From Escherichia phage D5505: DNA of 64,000 bases. The translations under genes were made by a program, and so were the position numbers. The DNA is taken from sequence record MK327929.1. One strand, written 5' to 3'. Positions 23,696 to 33,289 of the stretch are shown piece after piece. Position 1 is the first letter of the stretch. Each line of letters begins with the position of its first letter. Under the pieces are notes generated by a model. It ran no database searches, had not been told where the DNA came from, and saw only the letters and a program-made list of their open reading frames with translations.

Positions 23696-23749
23696 TCCTC
23701 ATGTTATGTCAGTAAGACTACTATAACACAACACGAGGGACTTGTAAAC
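23696..23749 (-). promoter_or_regulatory. early promoter + RBS cassette, copy 1 (GTTTAC -35, TATAGT -10, GAGGA SD)
   Basis: 54 bp identical to 39620-39673; -35 hexamer abuts stop of upstream alt-like gene. Confidence 0.7.
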
Positions 23750-25806
23750 TACATCTTGAACTTTTTAGACATTCCGTTGATGTTAACCAAAGAAGCTAAG
23801 ATTTGAGAAACTTCGTTTTCCTCTTCTTTTGATTCTTCTACAAGGAATTGATTAAATCCAGCCATTGGACGAACTTCACCAGTTTCCATCAAATGATCGC
23901 CATCATATACTGATTCTTCTAATTGCTCAGAAGGAGGAACGATTGTACCTTCGATTAGATACTTGTTATAAGCAGTTTCTTTCATAAAGTAAGTACTTAC
24001 TTTATTAATCTTCAGTAAAATTCCACGCGGTAGAATAACTTCAGCTTCTGATGGAAATCCTGATAAATGACCCGGAACGATAACTTTGATTCGCTCAGCT
24101 CCTTTAATTACCATACCCACGCTAGTTTCAGCATCTTCATTAGCATATGTAGAATGACTACCCATATGCATCAAATCTTCTGCATCAACGGAACCTTCTC
24201 CTTCACCAGAAAATACTGCACCGGAATCATCTAGAGCCATATAGTTTTTACCATGCTCGCCGAAGATATTTGGTTTAAGCGATGTAGATACGAAGTTCTT
24301 GAAATAGAACATTTTGTTTTCAATGTTATGACGCAAAGTTTTAAAGGTAACTTCTTGTCCGCGATAAAGCGTAGTTCCTGGAGGAAGAACTGAACCTTTA
24401 GCGAATGCAGAATCCAACGTCTCGATGTGCTTAATAGCTCGTTCCATATATTCTTCACGGGTAGAATCTGGTTTACCCAAAAGGAACGAGTTCATTTCAA
24501 CATATGAATCTGCACAATAATCTTCAATTACATCAGATTCGGCCTGAGTCAGTCCTTTTGGAGTTACTTCAGTGCTTGCGTATTCATATGCCTGGGCAGC
24601 AGATTCATTAATCAATTTATAAATGCCATTCATGACAAATTGAATAATAGCTGTCTTTTCATCTGGCGTAGCTTTAGAACCTTTAACTAAATCATTAATA
24701 ATTTTCTTAATAACATCAAAGCTATTAGAAATATTAATGTCAGCAAGATCGCTTAAAATTTTATCAGTTTTATAATCAAAGAATTCTTTATTCTTTAAAT
24801 ATTCTTGAGAACCTTGATATGTTATATCGCTCTGCAACTTGATAGATGGATCACGTAAACGTGCATGGGCCAATGCAATATGATTTCGGAAGCTTTCTAG
24901 TTCATAATCGCTAGATTTAAAACGAGAAGCACTTCTCATACCACCGATAGCTCCTTTGCTGAAGTTTGAACCAATCTGGATAACGCCAGAGTTCATTGGT
25001 CCTTCTGCTTTATATACCGGAACTTTAGATTCAAACTCTTGATATTTCTTGGCAGCGAAGCTATCACCCTGTAGCGAAGCATCGACAGTAGAATATTGAG
25101 CTTGTGCTGCTAATCGACGACTAATTTTAGTTTTTTGAATAACAGCTTGATCCGTGCGCTTATCATTTTCTAAAGCAATAGAAGCAGCAACAGCGACAGC
25201 TTTAGGAACAGCATTACCTGTTTTAACATCTACATAAACATCACCGACCTTCGATTCAACTTTTGTGAATAACTCAGTTGAAATAGGAGGTACACCTGGA
25301 ATGTCTTCTAAATTGGCATTTTTACGGTAAACCATAATATATGCATACTTTTTATCATAGTCCCAGATTTCCTTTAAAAGAACATATCGACCTGCTCCTT
25401 TAGTACGTACTAAACGGTCAGCAATAACTTGCATTTGACGAGCAGCGCCATTTGTTTTACTCTTTAGTACGCGGAATAAGCATGCATCAATTTTATACTG
25501 TTTCATTGTTTGAAGAGCAGTATCAAAAACAGCGTTAATGACGCCAATTGGATTTCCACCCAAGTTTCTAAGTTTAACCAGTGATAATTTCTCGTTGACA
25601 CCTATCATTACGATATGCATCATTTTATCGCCCGGCTTAACGTTTTTATTTGTATCACCTCCAGAGGTGTATGTACAAAATCTAAATCCAGGAAGCACGC
25701 TTTCTTCGCCGGCTTGAATAGCAAAAATTTGAGGTATTTTATGCTTAGGATTTAAGTTAACAACCGGCGCCGAAGCGCCGTCAAATAATTCTGTAATAAG
25801 TTCCAT
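23749..25806 (-). CDS. Alt-like ADP-ribosyltransferase, paralogue 2
   Basis: 685-aa ORF; N-terminal half near-collinear with the adjacent 683-aa ORF; C-terminal R (LYRGQ), STS (FVSTSL), ExE (SEAEV) ART-type motifs. Confidence 0.75.
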   Translation of the reverse strand: MELITELFDGASAPVVNLNPKHKIPQIFAIQAGEESVLPGFRFCTYTSGGDTNKNVKPGDKMMHIVMIGVNEKLSLVKLRNLGGNPIGVINAVFDTALQTMKQYKIDACLFRVLKSKTNGAARQMQVIADRLVRTKGAGRYVLLKEIWDYDKKYAYIMVYRKNANLEDIPGVPPISTELFTKVESKVGDVYVDVKTGNAVPKAVAVAASIALENDKRTDQAVIQKTKISRRLAAQAQYSTVDASLQGDSFAAKKYQEFESKVPVYKAEGPMNSGVIQIGSNFSKGAIGGMRSASRFKSSDYELESFRNHIALAHARLRDPSIKLQSDITYQGSQEYLKNKEFFDYKTDKILSDLADINISNSFDVIKKIINDLVKGSKATPDEKTAIIQFVMNGIYKLINESAAQAYEYASTEVTPKGLTQAESDVIEDYCADSYVEMNSFLLGKPDSTREEYMERAIKHIETLDSAFAKGSVLPPGTTLYRGQEVTFKTLRHNIENKMFYFKNFVSTSLKPNIFGEHGKNYMALDDSGAVFSGEGEGSVDAEDLMHMGSHSTYANEDAETSVGMVIKGAERIKVIVPGHLSGFPSEAEVILPRGILLKINKVSTYFMKETAYNKYLIEGTIVPPSEQLEESVYDGDHLMETGEVRPMAGFNQFLVEESKEEENEVSQILASLVNINGMSKKFKM

Positions 25807-25809
25807 GAT

Positions 25810-27861
25810 TTATCCTTGAACGAACTTGTAAGGCATGTTTGCAATATCTATGCAAGACGCAATAATTCCAAGAGATGATTCTACTTTCTGTTTAACATTT
25901 GATGAAACAAATGATGCAAAGTCAACTCTATCTTCTATATCACCTGTCATTGTAACCAATTCACCAGTTTCCATTAAATGGTCTCCGTCATAGATTACCG
26001 ATTCGGTGAGTTCTTCTGTGGTCATAACTTCAGCTTGAATAAGCTTGTTGTTAGTTTTAACTGTTCCATCATTGTAAGATGCATCGGTTATTTTATTAAC
26101 TTTGACCATTAATCCACGTGGCAAAATGACTTCCATTTCATTTGAAGGTGCTAAACTTCCACCGGGTAAAACAACATTGACCTTATCAGCCCCAGTAATA
26201 ACCCATCCAATTCCAACTAAATTATCGCTAGAATTTACTAGTCCTTCATCAGTTTTATCAATAGAAACACTTAGACGCTTTTCGTCTGGTAAAACACCTA
26301 CAGATGAATCAGTCATCCAAGTACCAAAAATATTTGGATATAATGATGTTGACACAAAGTTTCTAAAATAAAAAACTCGATTTTTTACCATTGCTTCATA
26401 TATTGAAGGTAACATTCGTTGTGAACGATACAAAGTAATACCTTTTGGTAATCGTTCACCATTTTTAAAGGCTGAATCTAAATTATCAATAGCTTTTTCT
26501 ATGTCAGATGCTGTCAAAATACTTGTACGCTCATCTGGATTATATAATCCCAAAAGAGCATTATTTATATCTACATATCCTGAACCTACGTATTCACGAA
26601 TTCCGCGTTTTTGCGCCGGTGTGTATTTAGATGAATCTTTATTTTCGACTATAGGATGTAATGACCATCCAGCTGTAAGAGCATATCCACGTAATTCTCT
26701 TCGAATAATCTTTGTTTTTATTGCATTCCAAGAATTTTGTACTAACTCATTTGCAGCATCTTGATTTAAATGCGAATGTTTGTTAATATTTCTTTCAAAC
26801 CAAGCACCTTTATATTTTTCTAAAGTATCATCGACGATAGAAGCAATAGTTTCTAAAGTTTTTATTGAAGTAATAGATTCTTTTCGTAATCTTTCTAAAG
26901 CTTTATTTTTTATTTCTGTATTAACATCAGATTCTTTATCTTCAGGAATTATAGAAGCTTCTCTGAATGCCATTCCAGCTGTAACACTATTAAGAGCATT
27001 CTCTAATGCAAATCCTGAAGTAGAAATAACAGTTAATTCGTTAGCATCGGAAATTAAAGGCGCATCAGCGGGTTTATTTAATTCTGCTGCTGAAGCCTCA
27101 AATTTTTGAAACATCGGTGTTTCAAATCTAGAAGATTCCAATGATTGACTTTGCGCAATTGCTCTACGGGAAATTTTAACTTTAACGATTACAGCTTGGT
27201 CAGAACGTTTATCATTTTCTTGTGCAATAGATGCTGCAATTGCCTCATTTTTAGTTACTTGAGCTCCAGTATCTTTATTGATATAAACATCACCGACCTT
27301 CGATTCAACTTTAGTAAAGAGCTCGGTACTAATTTCTGGAACTCCTGGAATGTCTTCTAGTGATACATTTTTGCGATGTATAAGAATATATGCATACTTT
27401 TTATCATAATCCCAGAGTTCCTTAAGAAGGACGTATCTGCCACCTGAACGACTACGGATAAGTCTATCAGCAATAACTTGAATTTGTCGAGCTTGACCAG
27501 CGGTTTTAGACTTAAGAATACGGAGCATACAAGCATCAATTTTATATTGACGCATTGTTTGCATTGCAACAGTAAAAACTGAATTGATATAATTAATTGG
27601 GCTTGGCCCAAGACCTTTCAATTTAGCAATTGAACCTTTAGCGGTTAATGTAAAAGGAACAATATGCATCATTTTATCGCCCATTTTTAAATCGCGATTA
27701 GTATCACCTCCAGATGTATAGGTACATAAACGAAAGCCTGGCTGTTCAATTGCATCATCAACGTGAACTGAAAAAATTTGCGGTATTTTCTTCTTTGGAT
27801 TTAAGTTTGTAATCGGAAGAGTAGTATCTTCGTCAAATAATTCTGTAATGAGTTCCATCAT
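25810..27861 (-). CDS. alt: Alt ADP-ribosyltransferase (virion-packaged, modifies host RNA polymerase)
   Basis: 683-aa ORF (T4 Alt ~682 aa) adjacent to gene 30; R (LYRSQ), STS, ExE (NEMEV) motifs. Confidence 0.8.
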   Translation of the reverse strand: MMELITELFDEDTTLPITNLNPKKKIPQIFSVHVDDAIEQPGFRLCTYTSGGDTNRDLKMGDKMMHIVPFTLTAKGSIAKLKGLGPSPINYINSVFTVAMQTMRQYKIDACMLRILKSKTAGQARQIQVIADRLIRSRSGGRYVLLKELWDYDKKYAYILIHRKNVSLEDIPGVPEISTELFTKVESKVGDVYINKDTGAQVTKNEAIAASIAQENDKRSDQAVIVKVKISRRAIAQSQSLESSRFETPMFQKFEASAAELNKPADAPLISDANELTVISTSGFALENALNSVTAGMAFREASIIPEDKESDVNTEIKNKALERLRKESITSIKTLETIASIVDDTLEKYKGAWFERNINKHSHLNQDAANELVQNSWNAIKTKIIRRELRGYALTAGWSLHPIVENKDSSKYTPAQKRGIREYVGSGYVDINNALLGLYNPDERTSILTASDIEKAIDNLDSAFKNGERLPKGITLYRSQRMLPSIYEAMVKNRVFYFRNFVSTSLYPNIFGTWMTDSSVGVLPDEKRLSVSIDKTDEGLVNSSDNLVGIGWVITGADKVNVVLPGGSLAPSNEMEVILPRGLMVKVNKITDASYNDGTVKTNNKLIQAEVMTTEELTESVIYDGDHLMETGELVTMTGDIEDRVDFASFVSSNVKQKVESSLGIIASCIDIANMPYKFVQG

Positions 27862-29559: not shown

Positions 29560-29825
29560 TGTTCATCCTTTAGAGTTTGGTTTACAGCTCTATTATAAAT
29601 CAATTCATCATTAAGCTCAGTCAAAGACCTGTGGTACGTGGTTCTAACTTTATTTCCTTGCATCCAGTGCTTGACGTAAATGAAACCTTGCTCTACACAT
29701 TTTTTAAAAATTCGTTCGTCTTTTTGAGCTCGGAATTCTGGATTGCATCTAAAAAATTGATTTACGTGACCGTAATCACGTGTAGTATTACCTTCATTTT
29801 CATAAATAGTGTGAACAACAAACAT
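29556..29825 (-). CDS. hypothetical protein (30.1-like)
   Basis: 89-aa ORF with overlapping start/stop to neighbours. Confidence 0.55.
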   Translation of the reverse strand: MFVVHTIYENEGNTTRDYGHVNQFFRCNPEFRAQKDERIFKKCVEQGFIYVKHWMQGNKVRTTYHRSLTELNDELIYNRAVNQTLKDEQ

Positions 29826-30664
29826 TAGAATGCTCCTTGGAAAATATTATCACCACTAGTAAATCTATTAAAATATCCTGCATCACCAGGCTTAGTATAA
29901 CTCCACGTATGGAATGGATTCATATGATACGGGTGTGTATAATATGGATTATACGGATTAAATCCAGGAGTTCTCCAGGTAGTGTTCCAACGAAAAGAAT
30001 CGTTTTTAACCATCTTCTCAATTACATCTTTTATAGCTTTTTCACTATCAAAACTTTCTTTATTTTCCTTCGGTGAAAAAAGCTTATTTTCTACATCATT
30101 CCATGTATAAACTCGCTGCGCAGTTTTTGGAATATTGTCACGCTCTCCTCGAGCCATCCAATAAACAGGAACATTTAATATTTCACTCGCATGATCGCAG
30201 TGGTGGGCGAGATCGTCAATATAACAAATTACATTATATTTCTCTTTTGCCTTTTTGAATAACTCTTCTTTTGAAGAATCATGACCACACATCATTACTT
30301 CTGAGAAGGCACCAGGAAAAAGAGCATTCAAATTAAATTGACGATTCAGCAGAGCGTCAATAGAATCACCCAATGCTGTAACAGCTACAAAATTATAATC
30401 TTCTTTTAGTTTGTTAATTACGCACAGGGCATCTTTATATGGAGACAGGTAACGAATAAAATCTGATCGATTGTATTTTTCAATTAGCTTGGCACCAAGT
30501 TCTTCATCACAATTAAAGAGTTTACCCGGAGAAATAAATTTCTCATCTTGGATCATTTTTAAAATATGTTCTAACGGAAGATTATATTTCTGAGCAAAAT
30601 AAGGAAGACCTGATTGCCAGCTTAAACATACTCCATCAATATCAGTTAAAATAGTAGGCTTCAT
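29825..30664 (-). CDS. HAD-superfamily hydrolase-like protein (30.2-like) with Tyr/Pro-rich C-terminal tail
   Basis: 279-aa ORF; N-terminal ILTDIDGV resembles HAD motif I (DxDG[TV]); C-terminus NPYNPYYTHPYHMNPFHTWSY. Confidence 0.55.
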   Translation of the reverse strand: MKPTILTDIDGVCLSWQSGLPYFAQKYNLPLEHILKMIQDEKFISPGKLFNCDEELGAKLIEKYNRSDFIRYLSPYKDALCVINKLKEDYNFVAVTALGDSIDALLNRQFNLNALFPGAFSEVMMCGHDSSKEELFKKAKEKYNVICYIDDLAHHCDHASEILNVPVYWMARGERDNIPKTAQRVYTWNDVENKLFSPKENKESFDSEKAIKDVIEKMVKNDSFRWNTTWRTPGFNPYNPYYTHPYHMNPFHTWSYTKPGDAGYFNRFTSGDNIFQGAF

Positions 30665-31125
30665 AGAGAGTCTCTTAATAGGTTTAACACATCAATAAAT
30701 TCAGCTTCGGTTAGTATTGTATCATCTTTTGTTAGACCACTAGCCATGCTGTGCTTCAAAACTTTTCCTTTCGAGGCTTGTAATGCATCGCGAAAGCCCC
30801 TGTTTTGGAACGCTGCTTCAAAATATGCATTTGTGTATAATTCTTTCCACACTGGAGAGTATCTTGAAAACGGAACTCCAAGCCAGAAGAGGGTCCCACG
30901 GTCCTGAGCTCTAGCATAAGACCTTCCAGCTTGTTGGGCGGCAAGCCCGGATAACCCAAATATACGACGTTGCTGTTCAATATTTTTCACCTTACACCCT
31001 TGGAGGAATCCTTCGAGACCTCCAAATTGGATACCATCCATAACAAAAGGCCATTGGGCGAAATTACTTAATGCGCATGATGGCCATCTAAAATTGCTTC
31101 TAATCTCTAACTCAGACATTTTCAA
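30661..31125 (-). CDS. YbiA/NADAR (DUF1768) family protein (30.3-like)
   Basis: 154-aa ORF; SNFAQWPFVMDGIQF resembles E. coli YbiA SNFAAWPIKVDGKTW. Confidence 0.6.
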   Translation of the reverse strand: MKMSELEIRSNFRWPSCALSNFAQWPFVMDGIQFGGLEGFLQGCKVKNIEQQRRIFGLSGLAAQQAGRSYARAQDRGTLFWLGVPFSRYSPVWKELYTNAYFEAAFQNRGFRDALQASKGKVLKHSMASGLTKDDTILTEAEFIDVLNLLRDSL

Positions 31126-32604: not shown

Positions 32605-32690
32605 TTTATTCTCCTTTGTTTGTGTAAGATAATACTATCACAAAGGAACCATACTGTAAACAACTTTATGCAATCTTTGGAAAATAAAAA

Positions 32691-32710
32691 AGGACTCCCG
32701 AAGGAGTCCT
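32691..32710 (-). terminator. rho-independent terminator (GGACUCC-UUCG-GGAGUCC + U-tract)
   Basis: 7-bp perfect stem, UUCG loop, followed on minus strand by TTTTTTATTTT; just downstream of the small basic-protein ORF. Confidence 0.8.
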
Positions 32711-32714
32711 CAAC

Positions 32715-32891
32715 TTATGCTTTCTGCTTACCAAAACGAGAAGCATCATCTCGAAGAACCGCACGTGCTCGGCGCATGATCTTCTCAACAGTTTGATTGA
32801 TACGAGAGTTCGACCCACGCTTGTAGCCAGCGCGTTTAGAATCACCAACTTTCTTTTCAACTGCTTTCTTTGCTTTAGCTTGTTTTGCCAT
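32715..32891 (-). CDS. small basic protein (58 aa, MAKQAKAKKAVEKK...)
   Basis: Track ORF 32715-32933 (72 aa); internal ATG at 32891 with AGAG-type SD is the more likely start; Lys/Arg-rich; own terminator. Confidence 0.55.
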   Translation of the reverse strand: MAKQAKAKKAVEKKVGDSKRAGYKRGSNSRINQTVEKIMRRARAVLRDDASRFGKQKA

Positions 32892-33289
32892 TATAAATTC
32901 TCTTTTAAATGAAAATGCAGGACTTATTGGCATTGCCTGCGCAAGCCCTCAAGGGGAACATAGGTTTTTGGATATTTAACGACCAGGATAACCATAAACC
33001 CGTCATCATACCTTATAGCTCTTATCTGTTGCACACCGTTAGCTTAAAGGTTCCGGGTTCGATTTCTCGAGGATAAGATATATACTGATGGATATATAGG
33101 CCTTGAGGCGTACTCCCGATTGGCCATCACCTCGGGGTAGCATGCACTTGCCGCTATAAGAATAACATTCAAGAGGTACACCGTAAAACTGCCGGGGTCT
33201 TAAAACTATAATGATTCACAAATCATTAATCAGACAGTTCGACGGCTCCTCGTTTTAACTTCACACTAAGGCAGTGACTCTCCAATAAA

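Follow-up and report, generated by a model that had tools for sequence, protein, structure and literature searches.

The 64,000-nt stretch of DNA analysed here (the window) carries an intact copy of adfN, the orthologue of gene 30.3 of phage T4, and we consider it very probable (roughly 0.93) that its product is a NADAR glycohydrolase that removes ADP-ribose from guanine in phage DNA and so counters the DarTG1 defence. The orthology, the intact length, the NADAR fold, the profile homology to YbiA and the catalytic set of Glu36, Lys43 and His123 were all computed here. Hydrolysis of the modification and protection against DarTG1 are carried over from published experiments on the T4 protein, which is 97% identical, and we infer with high confidence that the window allele would behave in the same way. 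The function of AdfN is already known from T4, and there is nothing new in the role of the gene here.

The source of the window is a T4-like phage (Tequatrovirus). A 2.1-kb stretch around adfN matches 714 phage records, nearly all of them Tequatrovirus-type coliphages (top match, 98.8%), and the minus-strand open reading frames run from alt and alt.1 through 30 (DNA ligase), 30.1 (DUF3045), 30.2, 30.3, 30.4 and 30.5 and onwards to rIII, 31 and cd, a gene order identical to that of the T4 annotation (NC_000866). The initial annotation had given the product as 154 aa (30661-31125), a length that counts from a TTG. The frame is real but the start is misplaced: the T4 orthologue is annotated at 459 nt and 152 aa, and the window equivalent of its start is an ATG at 31119 that overlaps the stop of 30.4 (ATGTCTGA). 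Because the published numbering of E36 and K43 fits only the 152-aa form, we end adfN at 31119 and not at 31125 (Table 1). At its other end, the stop codon and the ATG of gene 30.2 overlap as ATGA.

Table 1. Positions in the 64,000-nt window of adfN, its key codons and the neighbouring features discussed in the text
Feature	Coordinates	Strand	Details
Alt paralogue 1	23749-25806	minus	full length; 41% identical to T4 Alt
Alt paralogue 2	25810-27861	minus	full length; 99% identical to T4 Alt
Gene 30.2, predicted HAD-superfamily phosphatase	29825-30664	minus	279 aa; core ~1-200, variable Tyr/Pro/His-rich tail
Tail of gp30.2	29825-30070	minus	C-terminal ~80 codons
adfN (gene 30.3), predicted NADAR-family DNA ADP-ribosylglycohydrolase	30661-31119	minus	152 aa; full length
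Gene 30.3 frame as first delimited	30661-31125	minus	154 aa from TTG
C-terminal helix of AdfN, residues 138-152	30664-30708	minus	needed for full activity; lost in the frameshifted RB69 allele
His123 codon	30751-30753	minus	CAC; last strand; clade-defining for phage gp30.3-type NADARs
Counterpart of T4 30.3′	30756-30983	minus	inside adfN, out of frame
Lys43 codon, catalytic / phosphate-coordinating	30991-30993	minus	AAG; K43A impairs T4 AdfN
Glu36 codon, catalytic	31012-31014	minus	GAA; E36A impairs T4 AdfN (PMC11825919)
Sigma-70-like promoter (consensus scan only)	32303-32274		TTGACA-18-TAAAAT, near-consensus
Terminator-like hairpin (consensus scan only)	32690-32711	minus	9-bp stem

T4 has an annotated internal, out-of-frame gene, 30.3′ (75 aa), and the corresponding frame in the window is open and 88% identical to it. 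The T4 ATG start reads ATA in the window, through the same base change that gives AdfN its I47, and only a TTG remains, one codon on; the missing ATG argues against 30.3′ as a conserved gene. Consensus scanning picked out the promoter listed in Table 1 and a strong hairpin of terminator-like form (GAGGACTCCTTCGGGAGTCCTT followed by a T-run). The hairpin is placed inside an open reading frame, at the boundary of the 32715-32933 region, close to where T4 has 30.9 and on the upstream side of 30.8.

The window protein and T4 AdfN are products of the same gene in sister phages, with the same length, genomic position, catalytic residues and C-terminal helix. They align without gaps over their whole length and are identical at 147 of 152 positions; the five differences (I47V, V90A, F104I, R107K and M125I, window residue first and T4 residue last) are all conservative and fall away from the catalytic residues. 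The nearest database allele is that of phage ES12 (99.3%). The Pfam family Phage_30_3 (PF08010) is matched from position 1 to position 138 of its 138-position profile (E = 1.6 × 10−68; 229 bits, cut-off 36). A tblastn search found gp30.3 homologues in 1,510 phage records, 1,504 of which span at least 80% of the query. Glu36 and Lys43 are invariant in the alignments of close homologues, as is His123, and both Glu36 and His123 are at least 90% conserved in the broader 75-sequence alignment described below. The predicted model has a helix at residues 138–151, and residues 126–152 are identical to those of T4. Given the full length, the identical C-terminal helix and the presence of all three key residues, the window allele is very probably functional.

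The protein is predicted, from sequence profiles and a structural model, to belong to the NADAR superfamily, and this placement holds in the three decisive tests (a 75-sequence profile, a profile–profile alignment and a fold search), whereas simple family scans do not show it. With a Pfam scan of the window gp30.3 at E ≤ 1, the NADAR model PF08719 was absent and only PF08010 and a chance match to DUF724 were returned; an NCBIfam scan and a single-sequence query of PDB sequences gave zero matches, and the protein falls in PHROG 652, labelled 'unknown function'. An exhaustive phmmer search with gp30.3 recovered 710 cluster representatives at E ≤ 10−3, and 75 of these sequences were aligned for a profile. 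A smaller profile of 11 sequences reached YbiA among PDB sequences at a non-significant E of 0.057; with the 75-sequence profile, YbiA was the top and the sole significant match (E = 0.0015). Alignment of the 75 gp30.3-family sequences with 25 YbiA-family sequences using hhalign gave a probability of 97.5% (E = 7.1 × 10−12, 138 aligned columns), and a fold search with the predicted gp30.3 model returned the NADAR fold, with YbiA (PDB 2b3w) as the best structural match. The NADAR assignment made in the initial annotation is thereby borne out. That annotation had proposed a Pfam or HHpred scan as the check and the lack of a NADAR profile match as grounds for rejection. The Pfam half yields PF08010 without PF08719, whereas profile–profile and fold comparisons are positive; had neither of these been made, the proposed rule would have misfired. 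Some of the more distant gp30.3-family proteins match PF08719 below threshold (E = 5 × 10−6 to 4 × 10−4), and some YbiA homologues match both PF08010 and PF08719; the dual matches imply that the two Pfam models describe related families.

Pairwise similarity to YbiA is seen over a motif region, in which BLASTP aligns the window protein (SNFAQWPFVMDG...EGFLQGCK) with E. coli YbiA from MG1655 (SNFAAWPIKVDG...EHYFQAQK) at 34% identity over 56 residues (pairwise E = 10−5). Set side by side, the motifs read LSNFAQWPFVMDG...EGFLQGCK in the window and FSNFAAWPIKVDG...EHYFQAQK in YbiA. The SNFAxWP..VDG core that had been described as common to the two proteins is thus real, except that the residue before DG is Met and not Val; what they share is SNFAxWP...DG together with E-x3-Q-x2-K. 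Residues E36, Q40 and K43 align with YbiA E48, Q52 and K55, and the E-x3-Q-x2-K motif is present in most of the gp30.3-family members scanned.

The wider family includes multidomain architectures, for which we found no discussion in the cited NADAR literature. In metagenomic proteins (P0023, P0025, P0031, P0032, P0042, P0046, P0049, P0079, P0098 and P0149), gp30.3-type NADAR domains occur in tandem, with two matched stretches in ~290 aa or three in 480 aa, or are fused to ASCH, GDSL lipase, prolipoprotein diacylglyceryl transferase (LGT), D-Ala-D-Ala ligase C-terminal or BspA-type LRR (LRR_5) domains.

The function of the T4 protein has been established by others. DarT1 ADP-ribosylates guanine in DNA and NADARs reverse the modification (Schuller et al., Mol Cell 2023, PMC11543638); in vitro, T4 gp30.3 hydrolyses guanosine-ADPr and not thymidine-ADPr (Toxins 2024 16:208, PMC11125620). 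Phage crosses map the DarTG1 resistance of T-even phages to 30.3, which was renamed adfN, for anti-DarT factor NADAR (Johannesman et al., bioRxiv 2024, PMC11257639; Nat Commun 2025 16:1598, PMC11825919), and gp30.3 is both necessary and sufficient for this resistance (Johannesman et al., Nat Commun 2025, PMC11825919). Deletion of adfN sensitises T4 and T2 to DarTG1 by ~10^4-fold, and ectopic AdfN rescues RB69, in which the resident copy carries a frameshift and is without the final 15 residues (PMC11257639; PMC11825919). The purified protein strips ADP-ribose from DarT1-modified DNA, binding between AdfN and DarT1 was not detected, and DarTG2, which targets thymine, is not countered (PMC11257639; PMC11825919). 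E36A, K43A and an engineered C-terminal truncation each impair AdfN function (PMC11825919). The initial annotation had suggested an enzyme that reverses ADP-ribosylation of bases and acts in counter-defence against DarT systems; the first activity has been demonstrated on guanine-ADPr for the 97%-identical T4 protein (PMC11125620; PMC11825919), and the second for T4 and T2 adfN against DarTG1 but not DarTG2 (PMC11825919).

By extension, AdfN of the window phage would be a small, free-standing NADAR-fold glycohydrolase. On infection of a DarTG1 host, the DarT1 toxin would ADP-ribosylate guanine in the phage DNA at the exocyclic N2 and block replication; AdfN would cut the ribose–guanine N-glycosidic bond, which would free ADP-ribose and restore the base, and replication would go on. 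The enzyme would neither bind nor inhibit the toxin. It resembles the NADARs of Bas32 and T5-like phages and of Bas60 and Vequintavirinae, which are likewise orphans that counter DarTG1 by guanine de-ADP-ribosylation. These belong to other NADAR branches that were independently acquired, and they are active in any context, including uninfected cells, whereas T4 AdfN reaches full activity only when the infecting phage is T-even. The NADAR antitoxins associated with DarG1/DarT1 (the BC4488 family; for example, Geobacter lovleyi 8bat and the E. coli C7 NADAR) have Asp as the third active-site residue, where AdfN has His; unlike them, AdfN is an orphan without a cognate toxin and cannot replace DarG1 in uninfected cells.

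Because T4 gp30.3 fails to protect uninfected E. coli against DarT1 (PMC11125620) and T4 AdfN barely rescues T5 or Bas25 (PMC11825919), some factor of the T-even infection context is needed. The preprint suggested hydroxymethylation of the DNA as the reason that full AdfN activity is restricted to T-even infections (PMC11257639). The final paper found that T4-GT7, whose DNA is unmodified, is still protected in an adfN-dependent manner, and proposes a T-even-encoded helper for AdfN instead of DNA modification (PMC11825919). The relevance of modified DNA, on which the initial annotation had drawn, is contradicted by this published result (PMC11825919), on which we reject a link of adfN to DNA hypermodification.

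The neighbouring gene product gp30.2 comes to mind as such a helper, and we regard its identification with the T-even-specific factor that AdfN needs for full in vivo activity as a long shot. Under this reading, gp30.2 might act on a phosphorylated intermediate or on the ADP-ribose that is set free; alternatively, its tail might recruit AdfN to phage DNA undergoing replication. We searched 80 viral loci that encode gp30.3-family proteins with a gp30.2 profile. Gene 30.2 lies directly downstream of 30.3 and overlaps it at each of the 12 evaluable loci whose identity is 83% or more, and a gp30.2 homologue occurs within 4 kb in 10 of the 67 distant loci (≤45% identity). Adjacency is mostly confined to T4-like synteny (22/80 loci), for which reason we did not take it as evidence of obligate coupling. 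Fusion to a HAD domain was absent from the 20 multidomain or other gp30.3-family proteins scanned. The pattern fits conserved synteny of the T4 type, and obligate functional coupling gains no strong support from it.

Taken by itself, gp30.2 is a predicted HAD-fold phosphatase, supported by conserved motifs and by modelling. It starts with MKPTILTDIDGV and is 93% identical to T4 gp30.2. The initial annotation had noted a HAD motif I at the start of this 279-codon frame, and all four HAD motifs prove to be conserved: in an alignment of 35 homologues, D8, D10 and G11 (motif I, DxDG), K132 (III) and D150–D151 (IV) are invariant and T96 (II) is nearly so. In the HAD superfamily, a motif I with two Asp residues points to a phosphatase rather than a dehalogenase. 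The AF2 model has pLDDT values above 90 for the core (residues 1–200) and below 50 for residues 225–232 and 242–279. Foldseek returned 85 PDB matches at E ≤ 10−3 (best E = 9 × 10−8, probability 1.00, TM to target 0.5–0.63); the 50 listed are all of the HAD fold. Most of these are natural hydrolases of the HAD family, with 5′(3′)-deoxyribonucleotidases among the top matches, and some are engineered or de novo enzymes. The family profile reached mouse 5′(3′)-deoxyribonucleotidase as its top match among PDB sequences at a marginal E of 0.053, and the Pfam model HAD_2 scored 12.7 bits (E = 0.14), short of its 23.8-bit cut-off; the NCBIfam scan gave zero matches, the protein falls in PHROG 420 ('unknown function'), and a search for literature on its function found nothing relevant. 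The 5′(3′)-deoxyribonucleotidases (for example, 2jao and 2i7d) share with gp30.2 the HAD Rossmannoid core and motifs I–IV (DxD, T, K and DD), whereas sequence similarity is marginal (E = 0.05) and gp30.2 adds a disordered tail of ~80 aa. A (deoxy)nucleotide as its substrate is a guess.

The Tyr/Pro/His-rich tail of gp30.2 is present as first described. It is predicted to be disordered, is highly variable in length and sequence, and is missing from homologues of ~200 aa. Several homologues have a 'GIEY..N.PT' motif near the C terminus, which may be a short linear interaction motif; the T4 tail reads GIEYLYNRPT where that of the window reads DAGYFNRFT.

The surroundings of adfN also raise the idea that it mainly reverses or tunes ADP-ribosylation or RNAylation, by the phage Alt paralogues or by ModA/ModB, of host proteins or RNA. 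The initial annotation had noted two Alt-type enzymes nearby; two full-length alt genes do lie 3–7 kb away on the same strand, and NADARs were first predicted from their genomic association with ADP-ribosyltransferases, as PMC11543638 recounts in citing de Souza and Aravind. However, this proximity is the ordinary gene order of T4, with the ligase and other genes in between, and we found nothing further in support of a functional link between adfN and Alt. Most distant gp30.3 homologues were retrieved from other contexts, the known substrates of the clade are base-linked ADPr on DNA, and reports of activity on Arg-ADPr proteins were not found. We therefore consider a main role in Alt or Mod chemistry highly improbable. 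As a separate observation, the two Alt-type ADP-ribosyltransferase genes stand in tandem and are 41% identical to each other. At the site of paralogue 1, T4 is left with the remnants alt.-1 and alt.-2 alone, annotated as an old partial duplication, so that a second Alt paralogue has stayed intact in the window phage.

Homology to YbiA could also be taken to mean that AdfN serves in metabolite damage control, as an N-glycosidase that destroys reactive intermediates of the riboflavin pathway, rather than in DNA repair or counter-defence. YbiA likewise hydrolyses guanosine-ADPr in vitro (PMC11125620). The two proteins are only ~19% identical over the fold, and YbiA is encoded chromosomally, in a rhlE-ybiA-dinG-ybiB neighbourhood, whereas gp30.3 is a phage protein; the riboflavin-intermediate N-glycosidase role is a feature of YbiA and not one established for gp30.3. 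The residue in the last strand separates the clades: the YbiA family has Glu, BC4488/DarG1 has Asp and phage NADARs have His (PMC11125620; PMC11543638), and in the window protein it is His123 and not the Glu of the YbiA type. T4 gp30.3 hydrolyses guanine-ADPr in DNA, its deletion phenotype is specific to DarTG1, and a lytic phage has no evident need to clear riboflavin intermediates. A YbiA-like role thus deserves very little credence, and de-ADP-ribosylation of phage DNA is the reading we prefer.

That the window allele is a decayed, non-functional copy is barely credible. RB69 does provide a natural frameshift, and sequence collections commonly contain truncated or fused alleles; here, however, no break interrupts the 152-codon frame, the C-terminal helix matches its T4 counterpart exactly, E36, K43 and H123 are present and each of the five substitutions is conservative. 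In databases, 30.3 is represented by many alleles that are truncations of 86–126 aa or are fused to Pfam domains of neighbouring T4 genes (PF11097, PF06919 and PF06019). Such alleles point to frameshifts and deletions as frequent events in the accessory region, as in RB69, and the phages concerned are predicted to be sensitive to DarTG1.

Most of the 1,510 records with a homologue annotate it as a 'hypothetical protein', and plain Pfam offers only 'Phage_30_3', so a functional name for gene 30.3 has value for annotation. Through AdfN, a large NADAR branch has gained a function, and the enzyme exemplifies the capture by phages of antitoxin-like proteins that undo what a defence system has attached to DNA bases. 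With its intact adfN, the phage from which the window derives is predicted to be resistant to DarTG1, which may help in the choice of therapeutic phages.
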